Assembly: GCA_035764725.1 (NCBI GenBank)
Contig: DASTYT010000051.1
Coordinates: 4,603 to 68,602 of the forward strand
Source: Candidatus Methylomirabilota bacterium
GTDB lineage: Bacteria > Methylomirabilota > Methylomirabilia > Rokubacteriales > CSP1-6
Direction: 5' to 3'
DNA length: 64,000 bases
The notes under the pieces were generated by a model. That model ran no database searches. It was not told the origin of the DNA and worked only from the letters and a program-made list of their open reading frames with translations. The translations under genes were made by a program, and so were the position numbers. Of the stretch, positions 1 through 56,544 are shown piece by piece; position 1 is the first letter of the stretch; each line of letters opens with the position of its first letter.

Positions 1-56
1 AGGCCTGGCTGGAGCGCAAGGAGCGCGAGAAGGCGCAGCACGCCCCGCCCGCGTAG
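1..56 (+). CDS. 3' end of an upstream CDS (partial, product unknown; C-terminus ...AWLERKEREKAQHAPPA*)
   Basis: Open frame entering the window from the left and ending at TAG ~54-56, immediately before the GTG of the next gene. Too short to assign a family. Confidence 0.3.
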   Translation, partial: AWLERKEREKAQHAPPA

Positions 57-60
57 TCCT

Positions 61-774
61 GTGAACGGCATCCTGATCCTGACGGCCGTCGAGCTCGAGG
101 CCGCGGGGCTGGCGCGGGAGCTCGAGCTTCCCGCCCTCGCCGGTCTGCCATATCGTGCGTTCGGCCGTGGATCCACTCGCATCGTCCCCGTTGGACTGGG
201 CGCCGCGCTTCTGTCCGCGCGCTGGGCCGACGGGCTCGACGGGCTCACCGATCCGCTGGTGATCTCCGCCGGCATCTGCGGCGGCCTCGAACCGCGCCTC
301 GCCCCCGGCGACCTGGTGCTCCCCACGCGGATCCTCGGCGCGGGGGGAGAGACGCTGACCATCTCGGCGTCCGCGCACGCGCGCGCGCTGGCGCTCGCCG
401 GCCCGCGCGCCGAGACGGGTCTCCTCGCCACGTCGGCGGGCGTGCTGGCCACGCCCGGGGACAAGGCCGCGCTCCGCGCCGCCACCGGCGCCGTCGCGGT
501 GGACATGGAGTCGGGGCCAATCGTGGCGGCGGCCCGCGCGGCGCGCGCGCCGGCCCTGGTCGTGCGCGGCGTCTCCGACGACGCCGGATCCTCGGTGCCG
601 GCGGCGCTGAGCGCCTTGGTCTCCCCCGAAGGGCGCGTGCGCGGCGGCCGCGTCCTCTTGCTCGCGCTCACCCAGCCGCAGACGCTGCCGCGCGCGCTCG
701 CGCTCCGGCGGGGCAGCCGCCTGGCCCTCGCCACGGTGGCGCGGGTGCTCGCCGGGCTCGAGGCCGGAGCATGA
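61..774 (+). CDS. Purine/uridine nucleoside phosphorylase-family protein, hopanoid-associated phosphorylase (HpnG-like)
   Basis: 237 aa, GTG start. PNP_UDP_1-type motifs AVDMESGPIV and VVRGVSDDAG. ATGA overlap with the following epimerase. Sits beside an HpnA-like epimerase and a squalene-synthase-family gene. Confidence 0.6.
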   Translation: MNGILILTAVELEAAGLARELELPALAGLPYRAFGRGSTRIVPVGLGAALLSARWADGLDGLTDPLVISAGICGGLEPRLAPGDLVLPTRILGAGGETLTISASAHARALALAGPRAETGLLATSAGVLATPGDKAALRAATGAVAVDMESGPIVAAARAARAPALVVRGVSDDAGSSVPAALSALVSPEGRVRGGRVLLLALTQPQTLPRALALRRGSRLALATVARVLAGLEAGA

Positions 775-1784
775 GGCGCTCCCTCGTGACGGGCGGCACC
801 GGGTTCGTCGGCGCCAATCTCGTCCGCGAGCTCCTGGCCGACGGCGACCGGGTGCGCGTGCTCGCCCGGGCGGGCGGCGACCGCCGCGCCCTCGCGGGCT
901 GCGAGGTGGAGATCGTCGAGGGCGACCTGCTCGATTCCACCTCGGTGCGCCGGGCGGCCGCGGGCATGGAGCGGGTGTATCACGTCGCCGCCGACTACCG
1001 GCTCTGGGCGCCCGATCCGTCCGCGCTCTTTCGCGCCAACGTGAACGGGACCCGCCACGTGCTGGAGGCGGCCGCCCAGGCCGGGGCCAGCCGCATCGTC
1101 TACACGTCGACGGTGGGCGTGCTCGGCATCCCGAAGGACGGCCGGCCCGGCGACGAAGCCACGCCGGTGTCGCTCGCGGACATGGTCGGGCCGTACAAGG
1201 CCTCGAAGTTCGTGGCGGAGGAAGTCGCCCGCGAGCTCGCGGCGCGCGGCGCGCCCATCGTGATCGTGAATCCGTCCGCGCCGATCGGCCCCTGGGACGT
1301 CAAGCCCACGCCGACGGGCCAGATGGTCGTGGACTTCCTCCGCAGGAAGATGGTCGCGTCGTTCGACACCGGCCTCAACATCGCGCACGTCCGGGACGTC
1401 GCGCGCGGTCACATCCTCGCCGCCGAGCGCGGGCGCCTCGGCGAGCGGTACGTGCTCGGTCACGCCAACTTGACGCTGCTGGAGATCTTCAGCGCGCTCG
1501 CCCGGCTCACCGGCCTGCCCGCGCCGCGCTTCCGGGTGCCGTACGCGGTAGCCTGGCTGGCCGCGGCGGGCATGGAAGGCGTGGCGCGGCTGACCGGCCG
1601 CGCGCCCGCGGTGCCGCTCACCGCGGTGCGGATGGCGCGCAAGCGCATGTTCTTCAGCGTGGACAAGGCGGTGCGCGAGCTCGGCCTGCCCCAAACGCCC
1701 GCGGAGCGGGCGCTCGGCGACGCCGTCGACTGGTTCGTGGCGCGGGGCTACGCGGCCCCGCCGCGGGGACGGCGGGCCGCGTGA
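771..1784 (+). CDS. NAD-dependent epimerase/dehydratase, hopanoid-associated sugar epimerase (HpnA-like)
   Basis: 337 aa. N-terminal Rossmann motif VTGGTGFVGANLVREL and catalytic YxxxK (YKASK). Translationally coupled to both neighbours (ATGA / GTGA overlaps). Confidence 0.7.
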   Translation: MRRSLVTGGTGFVGANLVRELLADGDRVRVLARAGGDRRALAGCEVEIVEGDLLDSTSVRRAAAGMERVYHVAADYRLWAPDPSALFRANVNGTRHVLEAAAQAGASRIVYTSTVGVLGIPKDGRPGDEATPVSLADMVGPYKASKFVAEEVARELAARGAPIVIVNPSAPIGPWDVKPTPTGQMVVDFLRRKMVASFDTGLNIAHVRDVARGHILAAERGRLGERYVLGHANLTLLEIFSALARLTGLPAPRFRVPYAVAWLAAAGMEGVARLTGRAPAVPLTAVRMARKRMFFSVDKAVRELGLPQTPAERALGDAVDWFVARGYAAPPRGRRAA

Positions 1785-2662
1785 ACCCGGCCAGGTTCGT
1801 CTCGCGGCTCACGCGCAAGAGCCGGTCGAACTTCTTCTACGCCTTTCTCCTCCTGCCGCGCGCCCAGCGGGAGGCGATCTTCGCCGTCTACGCTTTCTGC
1901 CGCATCGTCGACGACGCGGTCGACGAGGGCGCGGACCGCGGCGCTCAGCGCGCCGAGCTCGCCCGCTGGCGCGAGGAGATCGCGCGGGTGTGGGGCGCCG
2001 GCGACCCCCAGCACCCCGCGGCGCAGCGGCTCCGCGAGGCGGTGCGACGGTTCCCCATCCCGCGAGAGGCGCTGGAGGAGATCATCGCCGGCGTGGAAAT
2101 GGACCTCGACGTCGCCAGCTACGAGACCTTCAAGGATCTCTACCCGTACTGCTATCGCGTGGCCTCCGCGGTGGGGCTCTGCAGCATCGCCATCTTCGGC
2201 TACACCGATCCGCGCGCGCAGGACTATGCCATCAACCTCGGCGTGGCTCTTCAGCTGACGAATATCCTCCGCGACGTTCAGGTCGACGCCCGCATCGGCC
2301 GGGTCTATCTGCCGCAGGAGGATCTGCGGCGCTTCGGCGTGAGCCCGGACGAGCTGCGCCTGGGGCGCTACTCGCCGGCCTTCGAGGCCCTCATGGCCTT
2401 CCAGGCCACGCGCGCCCGCGAGTACTACGCGCGGGCCTGGCGTGGATTTCCCCCGGCGGATCGCCGCTCGCTCTTCGCCGCGGAGATCATGGGCCGGACC
2501 TACTTCGCACTGCTCCAGGCCATCGAAGCGCGCGGCTTCGACGTCTTCGGCGAGCGCGTCACCGTGCCCTCCCGCCGGCGCATCGCCATCGCGCTCGCGT
2601 GCTGGGCGCGCTCCCGCCTGGGCACCCGCGGCCGCCCGCCTCTCGCGCGCCCGGCCCGATAG
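1781..2662 (+). CDS. Squalene/phytoene synthase family protein (HpnC/HpnD-type presqualene-diphosphate/hydroxysqualene synthase size class)
   Basis: 293 aa. Asp-rich motif 1 (YAFCRIVDDAVDE) and second motif (NILRDVQVDARIGRVYLPQEDL) are typical of trans-isoprenyl diphosphate synthase head-to-head enzymes. The length matches HpnC/HpnD rather than a eukaryote-like SQS. Confidence 0.7.
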   Translation: MNPARFVSRLTRKSRSNFFYAFLLLPRAQREAIFAVYAFCRIVDDAVDEGADRGAQRAELARWREEIARVWGAGDPQHPAAQRLREAVRRFPIPREALEEIIAGVEMDLDVASYETFKDLYPYCYRVASAVGLCSIAIFGYTDPRAQDYAINLGVALQLTNILRDVQVDARIGRVYLPQEDLRRFGVSPDELRLGRYSPAFEALMAFQATRAREYYARAWRGFPPADRRSLFAAEIMGRTYFALLQAIEARGFDVFGERVTVPSRRRIAIALACWARSRLGTRGRPPLARPAR

Positions 2663-2673
2663 CCGCCGCGCTC

Positions 2674-3684
2674 ATGAAAGCGTCCGTGCATGTGGGGTCC
2701 GGCCGCCTCGAGCTGCGCGAGTGGCCGGAGCCGCGGGCGGGCGCGGGCGAGCTGATCGTGCGGCTCCGCGGCTGCGGCCTTTGCGGCTCGGACCTCGCCA
2801 AGCTCGCCCGCGGGGCGGCGGCGGCGCCCGCGGTGCTGGGCCACGAGCTGGTGGGCGAGGTCGCGGCGGTCGGGCCGGGCGTGGGTCGCTTTGCGGAGGG
2901 AGACCGTGTGGTCGTCGCGCATCACGTGCCCTGCTTCGCTTGCCACTACTGCCGCCGCGGCAGTCCCTCCATGTGCCGGGAGTTCAAGCGCGTGAACCTC
3001 GACCCGGGCGGGTTCGCCGAGCTCGTGCGCGTGCCCGCGCCCAACGTCGCGCATGCGACGTTCGCCATCGGCGCGACCATGAGCGACGAAACCGCGTCGT
3101 TCACCGAGCCCCTCGCGTGCTGCCTCCGCGCGGTCAAGCGCACCGGTGCCCGCGCGGGCGACACCGTGGTGGTGGTAGGGCTCGGCTCCATCGGCTGTCT
3201 CCTCGCCCAGGGCTTTTGCCTGGCGGGTGCGCGCGTGCTGGGCGCCGATCTCCTCGCCGCGCGACGTCGGCTGGCCGCGGGGCTCGGTGTGGAGGTGTTC
3301 GAGGACGACGCAGCGCTGGATGGCGTCCTCCGCGAGGCCACCGGCGGGCGCGGCGCCGACGTGGTGATGCTTACCGCCGGCGCGGCGACCGCGGTGGCCG
3401 CGGCCGCGGCCCGCGTGCGGGACGGCGGCCACGTCCACTGCTTCGCGGGCGGGGCCGGCGACCTGCTCCCGCTGGCCCTCGACACGCTCTATCACCGCGA
3501 GCTCACGCTCAGCGCCACCTACTCGTCCTCGCCCACCGAGCTGGCCGAGGCCTTCGCGCACCTGGTCAGCGGGCGCGTGATGGTGGACGGTCTCATCACG
3601 CACCGCCTGCCCCTGGCACGACTCGAGGAGGGCGTGGCGCTGATGCGGCGGCAGGAGGCGGTGAAGGTGTACGTGACGCCGTGA
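2674..3684 (+). CDS. Zinc-dependent alcohol dehydrogenase (MDR superfamily)
   Basis: 336 aa. Catalytic Zn motif GHELVGEV, structural-Zn Cys cluster CFACHYCRRGSPSMC, Rossmann VVVVGLGSIG. Internal ATG inside a longer track ORF; located by residue counting from the ORF end. Confidence 0.8.
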   Translation: MKASVHVGSGRLELREWPEPRAGAGELIVRLRGCGLCGSDLAKLARGAAAAPAVLGHELVGEVAAVGPGVGRFAEGDRVVVAHHVPCFACHYCRRGSPSMCREFKRVNLDPGGFAELVRVPAPNVAHATFAIGATMSDETASFTEPLACCLRAVKRTGARAGDTVVVVGLGSIGCLLAQGFCLAGARVLGADLLAARRRLAAGLGVEVFEDDAALDGVLREATGGRGADVVMLTAGAATAVAAAAARVRDGGHVHCFAGGAGDLLPLALDTLYHRELTLSATYSSSPTELAEAFAHLVSGRVMVDGLITHRLPLARLEEGVALMRRQEAVKVYVTP

Positions 3685-3692
3685 CCGCGCGC

Positions 3693-4721
3693 ATGCGCGC
3701 CCAGGTCTTTCACGGGCCGGGCGATCTGCGCTTCGAGGAGGTGCCCGTGCCCGCTCCGGGCGCCGGCGAGATCCTGCTCCGGGTGGAGGCCGCGCTCACC
3801 TGCGGCACGGACGTGAAAACGCTGCGGCGGGGTCACCCCGTGATGATTCCCACCGTGCCCACGGTGTTCGGCCATGAGCTCGCGGGCACCGTGGCCGCGG
3901 TCGGGGCCGGGGTGCGGAGCTGGCGCGAGGGCGACCGTCTGGTGGCCGCGAACTCGGCGCCGTGCGGGGCCTGCCACCTGTGCCGCGCGGGGCGGCCCAA
4001 CCTCTGCGAGGACCTCTTGTTCGTCAACGGCGCCTACGGCGAGATGATCGCGCTGCCGCCGCGCCTGGTGGAGCGGAACGTGGTGCGGATCAGCCCGTCG
4101 CTGTCCGCCGCGCGCGCCGCCTTCGCGGAGCCGCTCGCCTGCGCGGTGCAGGGGATCGACCGCGGGCGCGTGGAAGCCGGGATGACGGTGGCAATCTTCG
4201 GCCCGGGTCCGCTGGGCTGCCTGCTCGCGCTGGTGGCCGCCCAACGCAAGGCGCGGGTGCTCGTGATCGGCAAGAGCGGCTGGCGCCTCGCGCGCGTGCG
4301 CGCGGCGGGCTTTGCCGAATGCGTGGATGCACGCGAGGGCGATGTGATCGAGCAGCTGCGCGCCCGCGCGGGCGGCGACGGCATCCACGTGGCCGTCGAC
4401 GCCACCGGGCGGCCGGAGGTGTGGGAGCTGGCCATGGACGCGGTCGGACGGGGCGGCACCGTGGTCTTCTTCGGCGGCTGCGCGCCGGGGACGCACGTGC
4501 GCGTCGACGCGAGGCGGGCGCACTACGAGGAGCTGACCCTGGCGGGAGCCTTTCACCACACCCCGGAGCTGATCCGCCGTGCGGTCGACCTCCTCGCCAC
4601 CGGCGCCCTGAACCCGGACCCGCTGGTCACCCACACGATGGGGCTGGCCGACGTGCCGCGGGCGCTCGGCCTCATGGGCGATGGCCAGGCACTCAAGGTG
4701 GCCATCGATCCTTCCGTTTGA
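3693..4721 (+). CDS. Zinc-dependent alcohol dehydrogenase (MDR superfamily), second paralog
   Basis: 342 aa. GHELAGTV, Cys cluster CGACHLCRAGRPNLC, Rossmann IFGPGPLGCL. An alternative in-frame GTG lies at 3681. Confidence 0.8.
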   Translation: MRAQVFHGPGDLRFEEVPVPAPGAGEILLRVEAALTCGTDVKTLRRGHPVMIPTVPTVFGHELAGTVAAVGAGVRSWREGDRLVAANSAPCGACHLCRAGRPNLCEDLLFVNGAYGEMIALPPRLVERNVVRISPSLSAARAAFAEPLACAVQGIDRGRVEAGMTVAIFGPGPLGCLLALVAAQRKARVLVIGKSGWRLARVRAAGFAECVDAREGDVIEQLRARAGGDGIHVAVDATGRPEVWELAMDAVGRGGTVVFFGGCAPGTHVRVDARRAHYEELTLAGAFHHTPELIRRAVDLLATGALNPDPLVTHTMGLADVPRALGLMGDGQALKVAIDPSV

Positions 4722-4746
4722 GCGGGGGTCGCCCCTCCGGTATACT
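4718..4746 (+). promoter_or_regulatory. Sigma70-like promoter upstream of ispH (-35 TTGAGC, 17-nt spacer, -10 TATACT)
   Basis: Read directly in the 58-bp ADH2-ispH gap. The -35 overlaps the ADH2 stop codon. AGGAGA RBS lies 5 nt upstream of the ispH ATG. Positions +/-1. Confidence 0.35.
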
Positions 4747-4779
4747 CGCGTGAGTCCTCACATTTACCCAGGAGACCCG

Positions 4780-5778
4780 ATGGCCACCATTCCGCTGCTC
4801 CAGGACATCGTGCTGGCCGGGCCCCGCGGCTTCTGCGCGGGCGTCGACCGGGCGATCGACATCGTCGAGCTGGCCCTGCAGGTGTGCCCGCCGCCGGTCT
4901 ACGTGCGGAAAGAGATCGTGCACAACCGGCACGTCGTGGAGGCCCTGCGGGCCAAGGGCGCGCACTTCGTGGACGAGCTCGACGAGGTACCGGACGATGC
5001 CACCGTGATCTTCAGCGCCCACGGCATCGCGCCGGCGGTGCGCGTGGAGGCGGAGCGGCGCGGGCTCCGCGTGATCGACGCCACCTGTCCCCTCGTGACC
5101 AAGGTGCATCTCGAGGCCGTTCGCTACGCGCGCGAGGGCTACTCGATCATCCTGGTGGGGCATGCCGACCACGATGAGGTGGTGGGGACGACGGGCGAGG
5201 CGCCGGACAAGATCCTGGTGATCGCGCACCCGGACGAGGTCGATCGCCTCGAGGTGCCGGATCCCAGCAAGGTCGCGTTCCTCACCCAGACCACGCTGTC
5301 GGTCGACGACACCCGCGACTGCATCGCCGCGCTGCGCCGCCGCTTCCCCAAGATCGTGGGGCCGTCGAAGGACGACATCTGCTACGCGACCCAGAACCGG
5401 CAGGCTGCGGCCAAGACGGTGGCGAGCGGCGTGGACGTGCTCCTCGTCATCGGCGCGGCGAACAGCTCCAACGCCAACCGCCTCGTCGAGGTCTCGAAGG
5501 GGCTGGGCACGGCGTCCTATCTCATCAACGACAAGAACGACATCCGCCCGGAGTGGCTGGAGGGGGCGACGCGCGTGGGCGTGACCGCCGGTGCCTCGAC
5601 GCCCGAGTTCCTCGTCACCGAGGTGGTGCACGCGCTGCAGGCGATGCGACCGGCCGAGGTGCGCGAGGTGCACGTGGTCGAGGAGGACGTCCGTTTCGGG
5701 CTGCCCAAGGAGCTCGAGGAGATCGCGCGCCAGGCTGGCAAGACCCTGCCCGCCCGGCGCGGCGTCGACGAGGAGTAG
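4780..5778 (+). CDS. ispH: 4-hydroxy-3-methylbut-2-enyl diphosphate reductase (IspH/LytB)
   Basis: 332 aa. N-terminus MATIPLLQDIVLAGPRGFCAGVDRAI is the conserved IspH start with the first Fe-S Cys. AGGAGA RBS present. Confidence 0.85.
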   Translation: MATIPLLQDIVLAGPRGFCAGVDRAIDIVELALQVCPPPVYVRKEIVHNRHVVEALRAKGAHFVDELDEVPDDATVIFSAHGIAPAVRVEAERRGLRVIDATCPLVTKVHLEAVRYAREGYSIILVGHADHDEVVGTTGEAPDKILVIAHPDEVDRLEVPDPSKVAFLTQTTLSVDDTRDCIAALRRRFPKIVGPSKDDICYATQNRQAAAKTVASGVDVLLVIGAANSSNANRLVEVSKGLGTASYLINDKNDIRPEWLEGATRVGVTAGASTPEFLVTEVVHALQAMRPAEVREVHVVEEDVRFGLPKELEEIARQAGKTLPARRGVDEE

Positions 5779-5781
5779 GCC

Positions 5782-6717
5782 ATGCATCTCGTCACGTTCC
5801 GCAAGGGGCGCAGCCAGGGGCGCGTGGGTGCGATCTGGCACGAGGCTGTGATCGATCTGGCCGGGGTGGCCAAGGATCTCGCCGCCCAGCGCAACGAGCC
5901 AGCGCGCGGCCGGGGATTTCCGAAGACCATGCTCGAGCTGGTGGAGGGCGGCGAGACCGCGCTCGCTCGCGCGCGCGAGGCCTTCGAGGCGGGCCAGCGC
6001 CTGGTCGATGCGCAGGGCATCGACGATCTCGCCGCGCGGAAGCTCGCGTACCCCCTCGCCAAGGTGCGTCTCCTCGCGCCGATCATTCCGCCCCGGAACG
6101 TGTTCTGCCTCGGCCGTAACTACGCCGACCATGCCGCCGAGCGCGGCGCCGCCGTGCCCGAGCATCCGGTGTACTTCACCAAGCCGGCCGACTGCGTGAT
6201 CGGGACGGGCGAGCGCGTCACCCATCATGCCGTCACCAAGGAGCTGGACTACGAGGTCGAGCTGACCGCGGTGATCGGCACCGGCGGGCGCGACATCCCG
6301 CGGGGGAACGCGCTCCGCCACGTCTTCGGCTACACGGTGATCAACGACGTGACCGCGCGCGATCTCCAGAAGAAGCACGGCCAGTGGTTCAAGGGGAAGT
6401 CGCTCGACACCTTCTGCCCCATGGGCCCGGTGCTCGTCACCGCCGACGAGATCCCCGATCCGCAGTCCCTCGCGGTGTCGCTGCGGGTGAACGGGCAGGC
6501 GCGTCAGTCCAGCCACACCTCCAAGATGATCTTCCCGGTGGATCAGTGCATCGAGGTGCTCTCGCAGGGCTTTACCTTGGTGCCCGGCGATGTCATCGCC
6601 ACCGGCACCCCCGACGGCGTGGGCGCGGCCACCGGCAACTTCCTCAAGATCGGCGACCGCATGGAGGCGGAGGTCGAACGGATCGGCGTGCTCGCCAACC
6701 GGGTCGCCGCGCCCTAG
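5782..6717 (+). CDS. Fumarylacetoacetate hydrolase (FAH) family protein
   Basis: 311 aa. FAH-fold motifs FCLGRNYADHAAE and a metal-binding Glu/Asp region (ELDYEVELTAVIG). Confidence 0.75.
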   Translation: MHLVTFRKGRSQGRVGAIWHEAVIDLAGVAKDLAAQRNEPARGRGFPKTMLELVEGGETALARAREAFEAGQRLVDAQGIDDLAARKLAYPLAKVRLLAPIIPPRNVFCLGRNYADHAAERGAAVPEHPVYFTKPADCVIGTGERVTHHAVTKELDYEVELTAVIGTGGRDIPRGNALRHVFGYTVINDVTARDLQKKHGQWFKGKSLDTFCPMGPVLVTADEIPDPQSLAVSLRVNGQARQSSHTSKMIFPVDQCIEVLSQGFTLVPGDVIATGTPDGVGAATGNFLKIGDRMEAEVERIGVLANRVAAP

Positions 6718-6842
6718 CGTCGTCGGGCGGCCCCGCGGGCCCCTAGAAGGGTCCGTCGCCGTGTGGTAGCATCCCCGTCACATCAGCCCTCTTCCTTCTT
6801 CGTCGTTCTATCCGTCGTGTCGGAATCAACGGGGAGGCGGAC

Positions 6843-8924
6843 ATGGCGCTCGATATCGCGAAGATCCGCAACATCGGCATGGTCGGCCACGGCGGGGTCG
6901 GCAAGACCTCGCTGGTGGAAGGCATGTTGTTCGTCGCCGGCGCGGTGAACCGGCTGGGCCGCGTCGATGATGGCACCACCACCACCGATTTCGACCCCGA
7001 CGAGATCAAGCGCAAGATCTCGCTGTCCACGTCGGCGGCCTACTGCGATTACAAGGGGCATCGCCTGAATTTCGTCGACACGCCGGGATACGGCGATTTC
7101 ATCTCCGACGCCCGGGCCGGCCTGCGGGCGGTGGGCGGGGCGATCGTGGTGGTGGACGCGGTGGCGGGGGTGCAGGTCCAGACCGAAAAGGTCTGGAAGA
7201 TGGCGAACGACTACGGCCTCCCGCGCATCGTGGTGATCAACAGGATGGACCGGGAGCGGGCCGACTTCTCGCGCGCCCTGGATTCCCTCCAGCGCCGGCT
7301 GAAGGGACGCCTCTGCCCCCTGCAGGTGCCGATCGGAGCGGAGGCGGGATTCCGGGGCGTGGTGGACCTCGTGAAGATGAAGGCGGCGCTCGTCGCCGAC
7401 GGCAAGCCGCGCGAGGCCGAGATACCGGGCGAGGTGATGGACACCGCCAAGGAATGGCGGGAGAAGCTCACCGAGGCCGTCGCGGAGACCGACGACGATC
7501 TCCTCGCCAAATATCTGGAGGAGGGCTCGATCGCCGAGGGCGAGATGCTGGGCGCTCTGCGCAAGGCCATCGCGAGCGGGACGCTCGTGCCCGTGCTCGC
7601 GGCCGCGGCCACGCGTCTCATCGGCATCCAACCCCTCATGGACCTCATCGTGGAAGAATTCCCGTCCCCCGCCGACGCCGGCGCCGTCGAGGGCACCGAC
7701 CTGAAGACCAAAGCCGCGGGCACGCGGGCCGTCGACCCCAAGGCCCCGTTCGCTGCGCTCGTCTTCAAGACCATCTCCGATCCCCACGTAGGCAAGCTCT
7801 CCGTCTTCCGCGTGTACTCGGGGACGCTGCGGTCGGACAGCCAGGTGTTCAACGCCACGCGCGGCACCAGGGAGCGGGTGGGGCACATCGGCTGGCTGCA
7901 GGGCAAGACTCAGAAGGCGATGGACGCGCTGGGCCCGGGCGAGATCGGGGTGGTCGCCAAGCTCAAGGACACGCTGACCGGCGACACGCTCTGCGACGAG
8001 GCCAGCCCCATCGTGCTGTCCGGCATCGCCTTCCCCGAGCCGGCCATCTCCTTCGCCATCCAGCCCAAGTCCCGCGGCGACGAGGACAAGATCTCCACTG
8101 CGCTGCACCGCATGGCCGAGGAAGATCCCACCCTCCACCACCACTTCGATCCCGAGACCAAGCAGCTCCTCGTCTCTGGCATGGGGCAGATGCACGTGGA
8201 GATGGTCGTCGAGCGCATGAAGCGCAAGTACAACGTGGACGTCCTGGTGCTCCCGCCGCGCATCCCGTACAAGGAGACGGTGAAGGGGCGCGCGGAGGTG
8301 CAGGGGAAGTACAAGAAGCAGACGGGCGGGCGCGGGCAGTACGGCGACACCTGGCTCCGGATCGAGCCGCTCACCCGCGGCGGCGGCTTCGAGTTCGTGG
8401 ACGACATCTTCGGGGGCGCCATCCCGCGGAACTTCATCCCCTCGGTGGAGAAGGGCGTGCGGGACTGCATGAAGCGCGGCATCTACGCGGGCTACCCGGT
8501 GGTTGACCTCAAGGTCACGCTCTACGACGGCTCCTATCACGACGTCGACTCCTCCGACATGGCCTTCCAGATCGCGGCGTCGATGGGGCTGCAGAAGGGC
8601 TTCATGGAGGCGCGCCCGATCCTGCTCGAGCCCGTGATGAACGTGGAGGTGACCGCGCCCGCCGACAACGCGGGTGACGTCATCGGCGACATCAACGGCC
8701 GGCGCGGCCGCGTGATCGGCATGGAGCCAGACGGCGAGATCGTCGCGGTGCGGGCGCAGGTGCCGATGGCGGAGATGCTCACCTACGAGTCCACCCTGCG
8801 CTCGATGACGGGCGGCCGCGGCGCCTACTCGATGGAGCCGTCGCACTACGAGGAAGTGCCCGCCCACATCGCGGAGAAGGTGGTCAAGGAAGCCAAGGCC
8901 GAGAAGGAGAAGGCGAGCCACTAG
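6843..8924 (+). CDS. Elongation factor G-like GTPase (EF-G paralog)
   Basis: 693 aa. G1 variant GHGGVGKTS, G3 DTPGYGDF, G4 NRMD, then EF-G domains II-V. Divergent N-terminus (TTTDFDPDEIKRKISL where canonical EF-G has ATMDWMEQE). GGGGAGG RBS. Confidence 0.8.
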   Translation: MALDIAKIRNIGMVGHGGVGKTSLVEGMLFVAGAVNRLGRVDDGTTTTDFDPDEIKRKISLSTSAAYCDYKGHRLNFVDTPGYGDFISDARAGLRAVGGAIVVVDAVAGVQVQTEKVWKMANDYGLPRIVVINRMDRERADFSRALDSLQRRLKGRLCPLQVPIGAEAGFRGVVDLVKMKAALVADGKPREAEIPGEVMDTAKEWREKLTEAVAETDDDLLAKYLEEGSIAEGEMLGALRKAIASGTLVPVLAAAATRLIGIQPLMDLIVEEFPSPADAGAVEGTDLKTKAAGTRAVDPKAPFAALVFKTISDPHVGKLSVFRVYSGTLRSDSQVFNATRGTRERVGHIGWLQGKTQKAMDALGPGEIGVVAKLKDTLTGDTLCDEASPIVLSGIAFPEPAISFAIQPKSRGDEDKISTALHRMAEEDPTLHHHFDPETKQLLVSGMGQMHVEMVVERMKRKYNVDVLVLPPRIPYKETVKGRAEVQGKYKKQTGGRGQYGDTWLRIEPLTRGGGFEFVDDIFGGAIPRNFIPSVEKGVRDCMKRGIYAGYPVVDLKVTLYDGSYHDVDSSDMAFQIAASMGLQKGFMEARPILLEPVMNVEVTAPADNAGDVIGDINGRRGRVIGMEPDGEIVAVRAQVPMAEMLTYESTLRSMTGGRGAYSMEPSHYEEVPAHIAEKVVKEAKAEKEKASH

Positions 8925-8938
8925 CGTCGCCCGCCCGG

Positions 8939-10279
8939 ATGCCGCCCCAGACCCGATACGCCAAGAGCGGTGACGTCAGCATTGCCTATCAGGTCGTCGG
9001 GGAGGGCCCGCGCGACCTGGTGGTGGTGCCGGGCTGGCTCTCGAACGTCGAGGTCTTCTGGGAAGAGCCCTCCGCGGTTCGGTTCTTCGAATCCCTCGCG
9101 CGGTTCTCCCGAGTGATTCTCTTCGACAAGCGCGGCACCGGTCTGTCCGATCGCGTGCCGGACATTCCGGGACTGGAGACCCGGATGGACGATGTCCGGG
9201 CCGTGATGGACGCAGTGGGTTCGGAGCGTGCCGCGCTCTTCGGCTACTCCGAGGGCGGTCCCATGTGCGTGCTCTTCGCCGCGACCTATCCGGACCGCGT
9301 GAGCGCCCTCATCACGCACGGCTCGTACGCGCGCCGGGTCCGATCGAGCGATCACCCGTGGATGCCGGTCCTGGAGGACTGGGAGCGGTTCATCGAGTCC
9401 ACCGTCAAGGGCTGGGGCGGCCCGGTGGGGCTCGCGGAGCGCGCGCCCAGCCGCATGCGTGACGAAGCCTTCGTGCAGTGGTGGTCGCGCTTCACCCGGA
9501 TGAGCGCGAGCCCCGCCTCGAGCGCGCAGGTGCTCCGGATGAACACGCAGATCGACGTCCGCCGCATCCTGTCGAGCGTCCGGGTGCCCACCCTGCTCCT
9601 CCACCCCACCGGCGATCGGGTGGTGCCCGTGGAGGCCAGCCGCTACATGGCCGAGCACATTCCCGGCGCGAAGCTCATCGAGCTGCCGGGGATCGACCAC
9701 CTGCCGTTCGCGGACAACGCCGAGCACGTCCTGCGGGAGATCCGAAGCTTCCTGGGCGAGCTCCCCACCGAGGCCGAGCCCGACCGGGTGCTCGCGACCG
9801 TGGTCTTCGCCGACATCGTGGGCTCGACGGAGCAGGCGGTGGCCCTGGGCGACCGCCGGTGGCGGGAGCTCCTCGGCGGCTTCCACGCGGCGGTCCGGCG
9901 CGAGGTGGGGCGCTTCCGGGGCCGCGAGATCGACTCCGCCGGCGACGGGGTCCTCGCCGCCTTCGACGGGCCCGCCCGCGCGGTGCGCGCAGCGTGCGCG
10001 GTGGGCGAGGCGGTGCGCCCGCTGGGCGTGACGGTGCGCGCCGGCGTGCACACCGGCGAGTGCGAGGTGCTTGGCAACAAGCTAGCCGGCATCGCCGTGC
10101 ACATCGGCGCGCGGGTCGCCTCGGTGGCAGGGCCCGACGAGGTCCTGGTGTCGAGCACTGTCCGCGACCTCGTCGCGGGCTCCGGCCTCGCCTTCGCCGA
10201 CCGGGGGCTGCACACGCTGAAGGGCGTGCCCGGCGACTGGCATCTCTTTGCCGTGGATCGGGGCGTGGCGCGCGTATGA
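8939..10279 (+). CDS. Alpha/beta-hydrolase domain fused to class III adenylate/guanylate cyclase domain (LipJ/Rv1900c-like architecture)
   Basis: 446 aa. N-terminal alpha/beta-hydrolase fold with GYSEGG nucleophile elbow. C-terminal cyclase homology domain (VVFADIVGSTEQ...HTGECEV...HIGARVA). Confidence 0.8.
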   Translation: MPPQTRYAKSGDVSIAYQVVGEGPRDLVVVPGWLSNVEVFWEEPSAVRFFESLARFSRVILFDKRGTGLSDRVPDIPGLETRMDDVRAVMDAVGSERAALFGYSEGGPMCVLFAATYPDRVSALITHGSYARRVRSSDHPWMPVLEDWERFIESTVKGWGGPVGLAERAPSRMRDEAFVQWWSRFTRMSASPASSAQVLRMNTQIDVRRILSSVRVPTLLLHPTGDRVVPVEASRYMAEHIPGAKLIELPGIDHLPFADNAEHVLREIRSFLGELPTEAEPDRVLATVVFADIVGSTEQAVALGDRRWRELLGGFHAAVRREVGRFRGREIDSAGDGVLAAFDGPARAVRAACAVGEAVRPLGVTVRAGVHTGECEVLGNKLAGIAVHIGARVASVAGPDEVLVSSTVRDLVAGSGLAFADRGLHTLKGVPGDWHLFAVDRGVARV

Positions 10280-11511
10280 GCTTCGTCACCCACGTCGAGT
10301 GCACCGTCTGCGGCAAGGCGCACGCGTCGACCCATCTCCTCACCATCTGCGAGGCCTGCGGCCAGATGCTGGCCGTGCGCTACGACCTCCCCGCCGTCGC
10401 GCGCGCCCTCACCAAGGACGCGCTGCGGTCGCGCCCCCCGGGCATGTATCGCTTCCGCGAGCTCTTGCCGCTGGGCGACGACGAGGCGCCGGTCACGCTG
10501 GGCGAGGGCGGCACGCCCGTGCTCGAGCTGCCGCGCCTGGCCGGCCATCTCGGGATGCGCCGGCTGTGGGCGAAGGACGAGGGACAGAATCCCACCGGCT
10601 CGTTCAAGGCCCGCGGGCTGGGCATGGCGATCACCCGCGCCCGCACGCTCGGCGTGAAGGGCCTCATGATCCCCTCCGCGGGCAATGCGGGCGGCGCCGC
10701 CGCGGTGTACGGCGCGCGCGCGGGCGTGCCCGTCGCGGTGGTGGTGCCGCGCGGCACGCCCGAAGCGGCGGTGGCCGAGGCCCTGATCGCGGGCGCCCAC
10801 GTGTTCACGGTGGAAGGCTCCATCGCGACCGCGGGCCGCCTCATCGCGCAAGTGGCCCCGCGCCTCGGCTGGTTCGACCTCGCCACGCTCAAGGAGCCCT
10901 ATCGCCTCGAGGGCAAGAAGACGATGGGCCTCGAGCTGGCCGAGCAGCTCGGCTGGGAGGCCCCCGATGTCCTCATGTATCCGACGGGCGGCGGCACCGG
11001 CCTCGTCGGGATCTGGAAGGCCTATGAGGAGCTGGCGGCGATGGGCTGGATCGGCTCCCCGCAGCCGCGCTTCTTCGCCGTGCAGGCCGAAGGCTGCGCG
11101 CCGGTGGTGAAGGCCTTCGAGGACAAGGCGGAGACCACGTCGATGTGGGAGAACCCCGTCACCCACGCGGCCGGGCTGCGGGTGCCCGGCCCCTTCGCCG
11201 GCCGCCAGATGCTGCGCATCCTGCGCGAGACCGGGGGCGGCGCGCTCGCGGTCAGCGAGGACGAGATCGTGGCGGCGCAGAAGCTCCTCGCGCGCGTCGA
11301 GGGCATCTGGACCGCGCCGGAGGCCGCCGCCGCGCTGGCGGCCCTGATGCGCTTGCGCGCGACCGGTGACGTCGCGCCCGGCGACCGCGTGGTCCTGGTC
11401 CTCACCGGCGCCGGCATCAAGTACGTCCCGCCGCCCCTCCCCGCGGCGATTCACCTCGAGGGTTCCCCCGACGAGGTGCTCGCGACCGTCCGCCGCGCCG
11501 TCGGCGCCTGA
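10276..11511 (+). CDS. thrC: Threonine synthase (PLP-dependent, with N-terminal Cys4 zinc ribbon)
   Basis: 411 aa, ATGA overlap with the upstream cyclase. PLP-lysine motif NPTGSFKARG. N-terminal CTVCGK...CEACGQ. Start located by residue counting. Confidence 0.85.
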   Translation: MSFVTHVECTVCGKAHASTHLLTICEACGQMLAVRYDLPAVARALTKDALRSRPPGMYRFRELLPLGDDEAPVTLGEGGTPVLELPRLAGHLGMRRLWAKDEGQNPTGSFKARGLGMAITRARTLGVKGLMIPSAGNAGGAAAVYGARAGVPVAVVVPRGTPEAAVAEALIAGAHVFTVEGSIATAGRLIAQVAPRLGWFDLATLKEPYRLEGKKTMGLELAEQLGWEAPDVLMYPTGGGTGLVGIWKAYEELAAMGWIGSPQPRFFAVQAEGCAPVVKAFEDKAETTSMWENPVTHAAGLRVPGPFAGRQMLRILRETGGGALAVSEDEIVAAQKLLARVEGIWTAPEAAAALAALMRLRATGDVAPGDRVVLVLTGAGIKYVPPPLPAAIHLEGSPDEVLATVRRAVGA

Positions 11512-11649: not shown

Positions 11650-12915
11650 ATGGGGAAGCTGACGCGACGGACATTCCTCAGGGCGAGCGGCGCGGGCGTG
11701 GTCGGCACGGTGATGGCCGCCGGGCTCGCCGGCTGCGCGTCCACGATGGGCGAGACACAGCCCACGGGCCGCCGCCGGGTCGTGGTGATCGGCGGGGGCT
11801 GGGGCGGCGCCACCGCCGCCAAGTACGTCCGGATGGGTGATCCCCGCATCGACGTGGTGCTCCTCGAGCCGAATCGTCAGTTCATCTCCTGCCCGTTCAG
11901 CAATCTCGTCCTGGCCGGCCTGCGCAACGTCGAGAGCCTGAGCTTCGGCTACGACGGGCTGCGCCGGCGCGGCGTGACGGTGCGCCACGAGGCGGCGCTG
12001 GCCATCGAGCCCGACACCAAGCGCGTGCGACTGGCGAGCGGCTATCTCGCCTATGACCGTCTCATCGTGTCACCCGGCGTCGACTTTCTCTGGGACCAGG
12101 TGGACGGGCTGCCCGCTGCGCGCGACACCGTCCTCCATGCCTGGAAGGCCGGTCCGCAGACGGTGGAGCTGGCGCGGCAGATCCAGTCCATGCCGGACAA
12201 CGGAGTGTTCATTTTGACGGTTCCGCCGGTGGCCTATCGCTGCCCGCCCGGCCCCTACGAGCGCATCTCGATGGTGGCGTGGTACCTCAAGGCGAACAAG
12301 CCGCGCGCCAAGGTCCTGGTGCTCGACGCCAATCCCAACATCGTCTCGAAGACCGCGCTGTTCCGCGAGGCGTGGAAGGCGTACCCCAACATCGAGTACC
12401 GCGCCACCAATCGGGTGATCGCCGTCGATCCGGGCGCGAGGGAAGTGCGGACGGAGTTCGACCGGATCAAGTACGACGTGCTGAACCTGATCCCGCCGCA
12501 GCGCGCCGGGCAGATCGTGGTGGACGCGAACCTCGTGGGCGCCGACAAGCGCTGGTGCGAGGTCAGCCACCTGACGTACGAGTCGGTGAAGGCGCCCGGC
12601 GTGCACGTGGTGGGGGACGCGACCACCGGCCTCCCGGTGCCGAAGTCGGGGAACGTGGCCAACAACATGGGGAAGATTGCCGCGATCGCCGCGGTGTCTC
12701 TCCTCAACGACAAGCCGGCGCCCTCGGTGGCACCGGGCAATACCTGCTACAGCTGGGTGAGCGATCGCGAGGCCATCGCGGTGGTCAATGCGTACAAGAT
12801 CGAGAACGGCAAGGTGGTTCAGATCGAGCAGCGGCTCACCCCGGCGCAGTCCCCCGCGGTGGCGGCGCGCGCGGTCGGCTGGACCCAAAGTATCTGGCAG
12901 GACGTGGTCGGCTAG
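11650..12915 (+). CDS. fccB: Flavocytochrome c sulfide dehydrogenase flavoprotein subunit (FccB/SoxF-like), Tat-exported
   Basis: 421 aa. Twin-arginine signal RRTFLRASGAGVVGTVMAAGLAGCAS. FAD motif RVVVIGGGWGGATAAKYV. A diheme cytochrome c follows. Could alternatively be another periplasmic FAD disulfide oxidoreductase. Confidence 0.7.
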   Translation: MGKLTRRTFLRASGAGVVGTVMAAGLAGCASTMGETQPTGRRRVVVIGGGWGGATAAKYVRMGDPRIDVVLLEPNRQFISCPFSNLVLAGLRNVESLSFGYDGLRRRGVTVRHEAALAIEPDTKRVRLASGYLAYDRLIVSPGVDFLWDQVDGLPAARDTVLHAWKAGPQTVELARQIQSMPDNGVFILTVPPVAYRCPPGPYERISMVAWYLKANKPRAKVLVLDANPNIVSKTALFREAWKAYPNIEYRATNRVIAVDPGAREVRTEFDRIKYDVLNLIPPQRAGQIVVDANLVGADKRWCEVSHLTYESVKAPGVHVVGDATTGLPVPKSGNVANNMGKIAAIAAVSLLNDKPAPSVAPGNTCYSWVSDREAIAVVNAYKIENGKVVQIEQRLTPAQSPAVAARAVGWTQSIWQDVVG

Positions 12916-14446: not shown

Positions 14447-15994
14447 ATGCGCTACGGATTCGTCCTCGACCAGCGGAAGTGCATCGGGTGTCACGCCTGC
14501 ACGGTGGCTTGCAAGGAAGAGAACGGCGTCCCCCTCGGCGTCAACCGCACCTGGGTGAAGTACATCGAGAAGGGCACCTTTCCCGACACGCGGCGGTACT
14601 TCGCCGTGCTCCGCTGCAACCATTGTGACGATGCTCCGTGCGTGACGATCTGTCCCACCGTCGCCCTCTATCGCCGGCCCGACGGCATCGTAGACTTCGA
14701 CGGCGCGCGTTGCATCGGCTGCAAATCGTGCATGCAGGCTTGCCCCTACGATGCCCTCTACATCGATCCCGAGACCCAGACCGCGGCCAAGTGTCACTAC
14801 TGCGCCCATCGCGTCGAGGTGGGGCTCGAGCCCGCGTGCGCGATCGTGTGCCCGGTACAGGCCATCGTGGCGGGCGACCTCGACGATCCCGGCACTCCCA
14901 TTGCCCGCCTGGTCGCCTCGCAGCAGGTGCAGGTGCGGAAGCCGGAGCAGGGGACGCAGCCGAAGGTGTTCTACCTCGGCGCCGAGATGTCCGCGCTGGC
15001 GCCCGAGATGCAGCGGCGAGACGGGCAGTACGTGTTCTCCCAGGCTTCCACGATCCCGACGCCCGGCCAGCGCAACCACGCGGTGGCGCCCGCGCCGCCC
15101 GTGCCGGACGACCCCCTCGATCTCCGGGCACTCGCCCGCACCGTCTACGACGTCGCGCACCCCGCGCGGCCCTGGGGCGGCAAGGTGTCCTCCTATCTTT
15201 GGACCAAGTCGGTGTCCGCGGGCGCGATGCTCGTGGCGGGGGTGAGCATGCTGTCCGGACTGGCGTCGGGGAACGTCCTCGCCGGCCGCATCGCGCCCGT
15301 GATCGCGCTCGTGTTCCTCGTGCTGACGACCGCGCTCCTCATTGCGGATCTCAAGCGGCCGGAGCGCTTTCTCTATCTCCTCTTCAAGCCCAACTGGCGC
15401 TCGTGGCTCGTCTGGGGCGGCTGGATCCTGATCGCCTACGGCGGCGGCGTCACGCTCTGGCTGCTCGCCGCGCTCGCCGGGCGCCCGCAGGCCCTGGTGT
15501 GGCTGGCGGTGCCCGTCACCCTGCTCGCCGCCTCGACCGCCGGCTACAGCGCGTTCCTGTTCGGCCAGGCCGAGGGCCGCGATTTCTGGCAGAGCCCACT
15601 GACCCTGCCGCATCTCCTCGTTGCCGCGCTCGCCGCGGGCAGCGCGAGCCTGCTGCTCCCCGCGCTTGCGCTCGGCGGGGGCCCGGGCGCGCCGTGGGGG
15701 CTGCGCCTGGTCCTGCTCGGCTCGCTCATCGCGCTCGCCGTGGTCCTCGAAGCCGAGATCCTCACCCCCCATCCCACCCTCGACGCCGAGCGCGCCGCGC
15801 GGTTCCTCACCCGCGGGCCCCTCGCCGCCCCGCTCTGGGCCGGCGTGGGGGGGGCGGGGATCGTGCTCCCCGTCGCCCTCCTCTTCACGCCGTGGCACGC
15901 CGCGTGGGGGGTGGCGGCCGTGCTGTCCCTCGCCGGGCTCTGGCTCTACGAGGACCTCTGGATACGCGCGGGCCAATCCGTGCCGCTGAGCTGA
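14447..15994 (+). CDS. Fused 4x[4Fe-4S] ferredoxin subunit + NrfD/PsrC-type integral membrane anchor of a Mo-bisPGD oxidoreductase (SoeB-SoeC-like fusion)
   Basis: 515 aa. N-terminal ~200 aa has four Cys clusters (CIGCHACTVAC; CNHCDDAPCVTICP; CIGCKSCMQACP; CHYCAHRV...CAIVCP). C-terminal ~300 aa has 8+ predicted TM helices of the NrfD type. No signal peptide. Confidence 0.75.
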   Translation: MRYGFVLDQRKCIGCHACTVACKEENGVPLGVNRTWVKYIEKGTFPDTRRYFAVLRCNHCDDAPCVTICPTVALYRRPDGIVDFDGARCIGCKSCMQACPYDALYIDPETQTAAKCHYCAHRVEVGLEPACAIVCPVQAIVAGDLDDPGTPIARLVASQQVQVRKPEQGTQPKVFYLGAEMSALAPEMQRRDGQYVFSQASTIPTPGQRNHAVAPAPPVPDDPLDLRALARTVYDVAHPARPWGGKVSSYLWTKSVSAGAMLVAGVSMLSGLASGNVLAGRIAPVIALVFLVLTTALLIADLKRPERFLYLLFKPNWRSWLVWGGWILIAYGGGVTLWLLAALAGRPQALVWLAVPVTLLAASTAGYSAFLFGQAEGRDFWQSPLTLPHLLVAALAAGSASLLLPALALGGGPGAPWGLRLVLLGSLIALAVVLEAEILTPHPTLDAERAARFLTRGPLAAPLWAGVGGAGIVLPVALLFTPWHAAWGVAAVLSLAGLWLYEDLWIRAGQSVPLS

Positions 15995-16003
15995 GGCCGA
16001 CCC

Positions 16004-52899: not shown

Positions 52900-53220
52900 T
52901 CAGCGGGCTGGATCGGCGGTCCCCGGCGCGCGCACCGCGACGCCATTGACCACACGCTGCACGCCGCCCACGCTCGCGGCGACGGTGCCGGCCCGCTCCC
53001 TCTCTTCGTCCGACCGGACGTCGCCGGAGAGGTACACGACCGCGCGCCGGCTCACCACGCCCAGCCGGGTGAGGTTCGCATCGGTCTCTGCGACCAGGCG
53101 GGCCTTCACCTCGCTCTCGATCCTGGCGTCCGTCCAGGGGCTCATGGTGGCGCAGGCCCCGAGAAGGAGAGCCACAGCGACGATCAGCGAGGCAATGAGG
53201 CGGCCGCGCATCGGCGTCAC
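52900..53220 (-). CDS. BON-domain lipoprotein
   Basis: 106 aa. Lipobox LLLGAC. BON-like region (VKARLVAETD..., VYLSGDVRSDEERERA...VQRVVNGVAV). Confidence 0.65.
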   Translation of the reverse strand: MTPMRGRLIASLIVAVALLLGACATMSPWTDARIESEVKARLVAETDANLTRLGVVSRRAVVYLSGDVRSDEERERAGTVAASVGGVQRVVNGVAVRAPGTADPAR

Positions 53221-56375: not shown

Positions 56376-56544
56376 GTGACGGATGTTGACGCATCGGCCG
56401 TGCCACTCCCGCAGGACCCGAATCGCGACTCGACGGTGCCTTTCGTGACGAACGGACGACGCACGCGGGAGGCGAACGGGTACGATCTGCCGGGACCTGT
56501 CAAAAAGTACCCGGTGGACGGCATCGCCGCCCACCGCCGCGAGG

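Follow-up and report, generated by a model that had tools for sequence, protein, structure and literature searches.

A conserved pair of zinc-dependent alcohol dehydrogenase genes in a probable hopanoid operon of Rokubacteria

The stretch of DNA analysed here, hereafter the window, covers 64,000 nt of contig DASTYT010000051.1 and has a G+C content of about 70%. The part under study, positions 61-5778, holds six genes on the plus strand: three that resemble hopanoid biosynthesis (hpn) genes, two adjacent genes for zinc-dependent alcohol dehydrogenases (ADHs), which we call adh1 and adh2, and ispH. Together with the end of the gene before them and the gene that follows, they are laid out as listed here.

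1-56, plus strand: 3' end of orf108 (last 17 codons and TAG); tblastn with the orf108 protein of contig L005 matches window 3-53 at 94%
61-774, plus strand: hpnG-like nucleosidase/phosphorylase, 237 aa; PF01048, E = 1e-18; GTG start 4 nt after the orf108 stop
771-1784, plus strand: hpnA, extended short-chain dehydrogenase/reductase (SDR) of the "sugar epimerase" type, 337 aa; TIGR03466
1781-2662, plus strand: hpnD, presqualene diphosphate synthase family, 293 aa; TIGR03465; GTG start
2674-3684, plus strand: adh1, zinc-dependent medium-chain dehydrogenase/reductase (MDR), 336 aa; ADH_N and ADH_zinc_N
3693-4721, plus strand: adh2, zinc-dependent MDR dehydrogenase, 342 aa; ADH_N and ADH_zinc_N
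4718-4746, plus strand: sigma-70-like promoter of ispH, TTGAGC-17 nt-TATACT; the -35 hexamer overlaps the adh2 stop codon
4780-5778, plus strand: ispH (lytB), 4-hydroxy-3-methylbut-2-enyl diphosphate reductase, 332 aa; NF002188, PF02401
5782-6717, plus strand: FAH-family gene; PF01557, E = 2e-72; starts 3 nt after ispH

An earlier note on this DNA had proposed the six genes and the translational coupling of the first three, and both are borne out by the shared strand, by the family scores given below, and by the junctions themselves: hpnG and hpnA overlap through ATGA, and hpnA and hpnD through GTGA. Downstream of these overlaps, hpnD and adh1 stand 11 nt apart, and adh1 and adh2 8 nt apart.

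Relatives of the locus were gathered by a scan with one genome per GTDB species, which gave 213, and the best 80 of these 213 were used for all locus counts. Each of the 80 loci was examined to at most 10 kb per side, and the presence and order of genes were scored by tblastn with reference proteins. Nearly all of them come from metagenome-assembled genomes (MAGs) of Methylomirabilota/Rokubacteria, with a Rokubacteriales-like GC content of 64-72% and ADH1 protein identities of 57-89%. Homologues of ADH1 at 67-97% identity are also plentiful in soil metagenomes, where the named ones are mostly Rokubacteria.

The genes hpnD, adh1 and adh2 are consecutive in 77 of the 80 loci, separated by gaps of about 9 nt; the exceptions fit contig ends, and adh2 itself is found in 79. 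An order that recurs in 77/80 related genomes goes far beyond chance and makes the two ADH genes part of the operon. The earlier description of a cluster "interrupted" by them therefore does not hold: the pair is an integral, selected component and not an insertion.

The families of the surrounding genes were called with NCBIfam equivalog models, judged against their curated bit cut-offs, and with Pfam domains. HpnA scores 467 bits on TIGR03466 (cut-off 368), with residues 3-327 aligned to positions 2-326 of the 327 in the model, and IspH reaches 445 bits on NF002188 (cut-off 420) and 331 on TIGR00216 (cut-off 188), as well as E = 1e-96 on PF02401. The HpnG-like protein is a weaker case. TIGR03468 is its best NCBIfam match, at 125 bits against a cut-off of 187 and over residues 66-229 only; its N-terminus resembles futalosine hydrolase models, and it is the product of the least conserved gene in the operon (38-87% identity). 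Because its place between hpnH/orf108 and hpnA is kept in 67 of the 80 loci, we suggest that it probably acts like HpnG despite the sub-cut-off score.

The 293-aa synthase had earlier been described as HpnC/D-like, and of these two names it is HpnD that stands. The protein scores 326 bits on TIGR03465 (cut-off 279) and fails each of the sister models: HpnC (190 bits; cut-off 250), CrtB (at most 195 bits; cut-offs 480-550) and eukaryote-type squalene synthase (SQS; 24 bits). Its Asp-rich motifs, DDAVD and DVQVD, are of the DDxxD type that has been contrasted with the DTxxD of Sqs (PMC7306690), and it is nearer to HpnD of the acidobacterium Terriglobus (164 bits) than to HpnC of the same organism (110 bits). 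These scores and motifs assign the synthase to HpnD, as opposed to HpnC, CrtB or an SQS-type enzyme. They also bear on the idea of a carotenoid or other terpenoid cluster, in which the synthase would make phytoene or dehydrosqualene and the SDR and the ADHs would tailor a carotenoid. Such a cluster could be read from a sequence search of the PDB, in which the synthase scores alike for CrtM (128 bits), HpnC (117) and phytoene synthase (115) and which returned no solved HpnD structure and no eukaryote-type SQS, and from the CruF-like gene that precedes hpnH in many related loci. However, the synthase passes the HpnD model and misses the CrtB models widely, at 326 against 195 bits, so that the grouping with CrtB named in the earlier note as part of its refutation was not found. 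HpnH, HpnA and Shc all score above their equivalog cut-offs, and a desaturase (CrtI/CrtN) occurs in no locus examined. We regard a carotenoid cluster as effectively excluded.

The earlier note had also placed the rest of the cluster 5' of position 1, and sequences from related material agree. A search for the identical HpnG-like protein gave four metagenome contigs. The longest, L001, matches window 1-4262 without gaps at 99.5% identity, which places it in the same population as the window, and it reaches 897 bp further upstream than the window. On this contig a C-terminal piece of HpnH, the radical-SAM adenosylhopane synthase, 202 aa long (289 bits; cut-off 225), is followed by a 108-aa open reading frame (ORF), orf108, and then by hpnG. 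Window 1-11000 has collinear counterparts, 90.3% identical in nucleotides, on two further contigs, L005 and L006, and in the GTDB representative L057. On the plus strand L005 and L057 carry hpnH, orf108, hpnG, hpnA, hpnD, adh1, adh2, ispH, the FAH-family gene and a paralogue of elongation factor G (EF-G); on the minus strand they carry a phosphoenolpyruvate (PEP)-mutase/nucleotidyltransferase fusion, MlaC-MlaD-MlaF-MlaE and the squalene-hopene cyclase gene shc, which is divergent from hpnH. There Shc scores 767 bits on TIGR01507 and HpnH 548 bits. The cyclase gene adjoins the operon in 46 of the 54 related loci with sufficient upstream DNA. Complete copies of orf108 lie at L001:627-953 and L005:7057-7383, and the gene was found in 65 of the 80 related loci; its product has no Pfam or NCBIfam match. 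It may be the acidobacterial "ug3", an unknown gene that comes after hpnH in Acidobacteria (PMC5462960). The remaining 58 kb of the window contain, by tblastn and Pfam/NCBIfam searches, no shc, hpnH, hpnC, hpnE or second SQS_PSY gene, in keeping with the earlier statement that squalene-hopene cyclase, hpnE and hpnH are missing from the window.

We consider it likely, with good but not full confidence, that window 1-5778 represents the downstream two-thirds of a hopanoid operon from an uncultured soil bacterium of the Methylomirabilota (Rokubacteria), with the gene order hpnH-orf108-hpnG-hpnA-hpnD-adh1-adh2-(promoter)ispH, with the ADH genes as integral members.

The promoter before ispH, already pointed out in the earlier note, is the sole sigma-70-like site in window 1-7000, where 0.1 would be expected by chance. 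What changes is the start of the gene. An ispH start at the ORF start, 4681, is disfavoured because it would fall within adh2 and 5' of the promoter, and the start is most likely the ATG at 4780, which comes after the promoter together with a Shine-Dalgarno sequence, AGGAGA, at 4770-4775. A site of the form TTGxxx-16 to 18-TAxxxT, nearly always TTGA..-17-TATACT, precedes ispH in 12 of 72 related loci, and TATACT alone does so in further loci beyond these strict matches. In most other loci ispH starts 8-30 nt after the preceding gene. On its other side, ispH is followed by the FAH-family gene in 41 of the 80 loci (many loci break off before this position), and the membership of this gene in the operon is uncertain. 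The positions of this gene (5782-6717) and of the EF-G paralogue after it (6843-8924) are kept in many related genomes; we know of no hopanoid role for either.

The two dehydrogenases are 36% identical to each other. Neither passes any NCBIfam equivalog (threonine 3-dehydrogenase, IolM, galactitol-1-phosphate dehydrogenase, L-idonate 5-dehydrogenase and others): both score highest on the Tdh and IolM models, at 150 and 148 bits, and the cut-offs of 380-458 lie far enough above to make them members of no named equivalog. A match to an NCBIfam model called "HpnZ_proposed" was dropped, the name being one from phosphonate catabolism and not from hopanoids, and its 116 bits falling under the cut-off of 328. 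Among solved structures, the closest are those of a Thermus ADH, of threonine and sorbitol dehydrogenases, and of a putative dehydrogenase from rhizobia. The best matches include Tdh, IolM and sorbitol, galactitol-1-phosphate and glucose dehydrogenases, and both proteins carry a CG(S/T)D motif, which is characteristic of the polyol dehydrogenase/Tdh branch. This motif and these matches point to vicinal diols, polyols or hemiacetals as probable substrates.

The residues expected of such enzymes are conserved. In ADH1, C37/H57/E58/E145 and C87/C90/C93/C101 are invariant in 81/81 orthologues; in ADH2, C37, H61 and E62 are invariant among the aligned residues of 78 orthologues (one has a gap at C37), and the ADH2 of the window also has E146 and the structural cysteines C91/C94/C97/C105. 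Both have the GxGxxG Rossmann motif. At the end of beta-2, position 192 of ADH1 is acidic throughout its 81 orthologues (D in 75, E in 6). ADH2 has no acidic residue there in its 78 orthologues and instead a near-invariant G193-K194-x-G196-W197-R198. By general Rossmann-fold rules this suggests that ADH1 uses NAD and ADH2 NADP. An AlphaFold2 model of ADH1 (predicted local distance difference test score, pLDDT, 85.6) found only generic MDR neighbours in a Foldseek search of the PDB (TADH, Tdh, AibC, YdjJ), and these neighbours are uninformative on substrate.

In fold and in catalytic and Cys4 zinc sites the pair thus resembles the polyol dehydrogenase/Tdh branch of the MDR family (sorbitol dehydrogenase, Tdh, IolM, galactitol-1-phosphate dehydrogenase, archaeal glucose dehydrogenase), but unlike the named enzymes of that branch it scores about 150 bits where 380-458 are asked for, and it sits in a lipid-biosynthesis operon. 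Side-by-side genes with opposite cofactor signatures also recall the couples of an NADPH reductase and an NAD dehydrogenase, such as aldose reductase with sorbitol dehydrogenase or IolG/IolW. This likeness is pure analogy; in the classical couples the reductase step comes from a different enzyme family.

The distribution of ADH2 was followed by a HMMER scan of 50%-identity representatives, and the neighbourhoods of eight were viewed. Rokubacterial ADH2 makes up one full-length cluster (484 bits) and some fragment clusters, and many representatives come next at 42-47% identity. Two of the neighbourhoods are hpn loci. In Terriglobus roseus (Acidobacteria) a divergent MlaF-MlaE pair is followed by ADH-hpnC-hpnD-hpnE, with the ADH gene overlapping hpnC by 4 nt; HpnC and HpnE there reach 312 and 436 bits, respectively. 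The Terriglobus ADH is 44% identical to ADH2 and scores 279 bits with it, against 139 bits with ADH1. It is evidently the "ug2" of Sinninghe Damste et al., a zinc-binding ADH of about 350 aa for which these authors report a place before hpnC throughout subdivisions 1 and 3 of the Acidobacteria (2017, PMC5462960). The second case is contig L097 (58% GC), with the order ispH-shc-hpnA-hpnG-[frameshifted Zn-ADH]-ADH2-like (49% identity)-hpnC-hpnD. On this contig shc is split in two ORFs (L097:3164-5156) and the first Zn-ADH lies in frameshifted pieces (6877-8001), breaks that could stem from errors in long-read assembly or mark true pseudogenes. Three further lineages (3/8 neighbourhoods) have an ADH2-like gene directly 3' of another Zn-ADH with no hpn genes nearby, and another three (3/8) have one in sugar-related or unrelated contexts.

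A reading of the ADH family as hopanoid-specific was rejected on account of the 42-47%-identity representatives in sugar-related or unrelated contexts. With hpn-linked, hpn-free and sugar-related neighbourhoods alike, ADH2-like genes are recurrent yet non-exclusive companions of hpn clusters, and the tandem ADH pair looks like a reusable two-gene module. In a neighbour-joining (NJ) tree without support values the Terriglobus ADH falls in a broad clade beside Rokubacterial ADH2, and non-hpn homologues score similarly; the orthology of ADH2 and ug2 is a matter of best-hit scores and this unsupported tree. The earlier view that a Zn-ADH is not a standard hpn component is therefore half right: a Zn-ADH before hpnC-hpnD-hpnE was already on record in Acidobacteria as "ug2" (PMC5462960), and the Terriglobus gene proves here to be ADH2-like (44% identity). 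An incomplete set of full-text literature yielded no paper on the Rokubacterial pair, and the passages of a 2025 microsynteny study that deal with "dehydrogenase" hold no alcohol dehydrogenase (PMC12324291). There is one earlier record of a Zn-ADH with hpnCDE, from Acidobacteria and without a function. The Rokubacterial locus as a whole is a hopanoid cluster of a known kind in a lineage-specific form.

These neighbourhoods raise the question of whether the ADHs are simply ordinary sugar, polyol or amino-alcohol dehydrogenases that ride along and have nothing to do with hopanoids. Their best scores, below cut-off, are on threonine and inosose dehydrogenase models, the nearest non-Rokubacterial genes include ones in sugar-catabolic and unrelated neighbourhoods, and tandem pairs occur free of hpn genes. 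Yet their position is fixed in 77/80 loci, a set over which the identity of ADH1 falls as low as 57%. Acidobacteria and a third lineage show the link to hpn genes independently, and the operon contains no sugar transporter, kinase or regulator. We therefore think mere passengers highly improbable. If the ADHs did prove unrelated to hopanoids, the locus would be a routine hopanoid operon.

A second possibility is that the pair acts with HpnD at the squalene stage, its substrate being a C15 or C30 isoprenoid that bears oxygen (farnesol/farnesal, presqualene alcohol or hydroxysqualene, for example). The ADH2-like gene follows hpnD in Rokubacteria, overlaps hpnC in Terriglobus, and precedes hpnC-hpnD in L097. 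Neither hpnC nor hpnE was found by tblastn in any of the 80 Rokubacterial loci (0/80), each covered to at most 10 kb per side, and of the HpnC-HpnD-HpnE route the loci have HpnD only; the ADHs might, in a variant of this idea, compensate for the two absent enzymes. Terriglobus, however, has an ADH and a complete HpnC/HpnD/HpnE set, so the ADH is no replacement there. To our knowledge, deoxygenation of allylic alcohols is not a reaction of polyol dehydrogenase-type MDR enzymes. Orphan HpnD and degenerate HpnCDE have been described in Rokubacteria/NC10, and functional versatility has been suggested (PMC7306690), which would suit a squalene-stage role, but the same study finds Sqs elsewhere in these genomes, so that the supply of squalene needs no new route in these phyla. 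In addition, ug2 is missing from a squalene-making acidobacterium (PMC5462960). On balance a squalene-stage role seems to us unlikely, though less so than that of passenger enzymes.

The role that we favour lies later in the pathway. Judging from family membership, IspH would supply isopentenyl diphosphate and dimethylallyl diphosphate, HpnD would join two farnesyl diphosphates to presqualene diphosphate, and squalene would be cyclised by Shc. HpnH would then put a 5'-deoxyadenosyl unit on diploptene, and the HpnG-like enzyme would take the adenine off adenosylhopane to leave ribosylhopane. No role has been established for HpnA or for orphan HpnD (PMC12583986, PMC7306690; PMC5462960 for HpnA). 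We tentatively propose that the ADHs catalyse redox reactions of the polyol side chain that ribose contributes to C35 hopanoids, a proposal in which we place limited confidence. It is favoured because their branch of the family acts on vicinal diols, polyols or hemiacetals, and the C35 side chain is the sole group of this kind in the pathway. For example, an NADPH-linked ADH2 could reduce open-chain ribosylhopane to bacteriohopanetetrol (BHT), and an NAD-linked ADH1 could oxidise a hydroxyl of the side chain. The earlier note had already seen in the two genes a possible hint of modified isoprenoid side-chain chemistry, an idea that may hold. The conversion of ribosylhopane to BHT has no assigned enzyme (PMC12583986, PMC5462960), and the genes for BHpentol and BHhexol are likewise unidentified (PMC12583986).

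Several points weigh against this reconstruction. The cyclase gene was seen in relatives only and not for this exact organism, and the HpnG-like protein fails the family cut-off of HpnG. Neither ADH reaches any NCBIfam equivalog cut-off, so that these models do not name a substrate. Homologues at 42-47% identity stand in sugar-related or unrelated contexts, and there are tandem ADH pairs without hpn genes. An ADH directly adjoins an SQS_PSY gene in all three lineages, a placement that a squalene-stage role fits equally, and the Terriglobus gene sits with hpnCDE, not with hpnG or hpnA. We know of no Zn-ADH in the hpn clusters of the well-studied Proteobacteria that make BHT. Chloracidobacterium thermophilum, too, makes BHT derivatives and is without ug2 (PMC5462960). 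Since there are BHT producers that do not have such an ADH, an ADH2-type enzyme cannot be the universal ribosylhopane reductase.

A bolder version of the side-chain proposal would make ADH2 a lineage-specific form of the missing reductase from ribosylhopane to BHT and ADH1 a side-chain oxidase, which together would form a "polyol pathway" to keto, epimeric and acid or lactone C35 hopanoids. We regard this version as a long shot, somewhat less probable than the squalene-stage role. If it were true, ADH2/"ug2" would be a new cross-phylum family for the tailoring of hopanoid side chains. Hopanoids, which are sterol-like, rank among the major membrane lipids of bacteria and serve geology as key biomarkers, and several steps of their biosynthesis are still without genes. 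Rokubacteria are abundant in soils and uncultured, and they may be important soil sources of hopanoids. The fixed ADH pair offers concrete, cloneable candidates for the missing steps, with a relative in cultivable Acidobacteria.

The Rokubacterial loci can be set beside two known kinds of cluster. Proteobacterial hpn clusters (Zymomonas, Rhodopseudomonas, Burkholderia) have the order hpnA-hpnB-hpnC-hpnD-hpnE-shc-hpnG-hpnH with ispH nearby. Like them, the Rokubacterial loci bring together hpnH, hpnG, hpnA, hpnD, ispH and, in relatives, shc, in a tight operon with Mla/HpnM-like transport genes adjacent. Unlike them, they have no hpnC, hpnE, hpnB, hpnI/J/K, hpnN or hpnO within 10 kb, their shc is divergent, and they add orf108, the two Zn-ADHs and mostly the CruF-like and PagL-like genes. 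The acidobacterial "cluster A" (ug2-hpnC-hpnD-hpnE, PMC5462960) shares with them a Zn-ADH gene that lies beside SQS_PSY genes and is probably co-transcribed with them, and adjacent MlaE/MlaF. In contrast, the acidobacterial cluster retains hpnC and hpnE and has just one ADH, located before hpnC, whereas Rokubacteria have the pair after an orphan hpnD.

Several neighbours of the operon deserve mention in their own right. Beside shc in Rokubacteria lie genes for MlaE-MlaF-MlaD-MlaC (L005:1249-3949, minus strand), the MlaC protein being nearest to HpnM at 94 bits, below the cut-off. MlaE and MlaF genes are also found beside the ADH-hpnCDE operon of Terriglobus (L090:8287-9878). Mla-like transport of hopanoids has been proposed before (PMC12324291), and the presence of Mla genes beside these hpn loci extends that idea beyond Proteobacteria. 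In one subgroup (L015, L017, L025, L026, L028, L029, L033, L037) the genes for MlaE and the CruF-like protein are direct neighbours without an intervening shc, so that in those genomes the cyclase is elsewhere or missing.

Next to the Mla/hpn region lies the PEP-mutase/nucleotidyltransferase fusion (L005:1-1220, minus strand), and in another subgroup the same place (L008:1-2256) is taken by genes for an LPG_synthase_TM (HpnL-like) protein, a CDP-alcohol phosphatidyltransferase and an NTP-transferase. The fusion and the HpnL-like neighbours are hints of phosphonate or head-group lipid chemistry nearby.

Just 5' of hpnH, 54 of the 80 loci have a gene for a CruF-like membrane protein of the carotenoid 1,2-hydratase family (PF04240; L007:5166-5909), which might hydrate the terminal double bond of squalene or diploptene. 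Between adh2 and ispH, 53 of the 80 have a gene for a PagL-family outer-membrane protein that resembles lipid A deacylases (L008:12075-12644). The window's own subgroup is without both genes, which are present in most other lineages. C35 hopanediolic acid is linked to lipid A in some Bradyrhizobium (PMC4620461), and by analogy it is conceivable that the PagL-like gene is connected with a hopanoid-lipid A. A polyol pathway of the kind described above, if it exists, might feed such an attachment in the Rokubacteria that bear the PagL-like gene.

A typical Rokubacterial hpn operon is also present on eight contigs that bear other labels (L015, L017, L022, L029, L034, L046, L057, L066), namely Nitrosotalea (an archaeon), Verrucomicrobiia, Limnocylindria, Dormiibacterota, Binatia, Deferrimicrobiaceae and Acidoferrum MAGs. 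These odd labels probably reflect mis-binning and not horizontal transfer.

Scans for Rfam families and tRNA genes gave no hit in the window. Apart from the FAH-family gene and the EF-G paralogue, the downstream genes include a molybdo-oxidoreductase and tricarboxylic acid cycle genes. A gene whose 446-aa product joins an alpha/beta-hydrolase domain to an adenylate/guanylate cyclase catalytic domain (8939-10279) is kept 3' of the EF-G paralogue in L005, and a sulfide:quinone reductase-like gene lies at 11650-12915. The molybdopterin oxidoreductase pair (14447-18832) consists of a 515-aa protein, in which a 4Fe-4S subunit (TtrB/DsrO-like) is fused to an NrfD/DsrP-like membrane domain, and a 942-aa catalytic subunit that is under every equivalog cut-off. 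Molybdoenzymes of the xanthine dehydrogenase family are encoded at 43443-45701 (minus strand) and 59261-62002. A 1105-aa DUF748/AsmA/YhdP-like protein is encoded at 53217-56534 (minus strand) and belongs to a family implicated in inter-membrane lipid transport.

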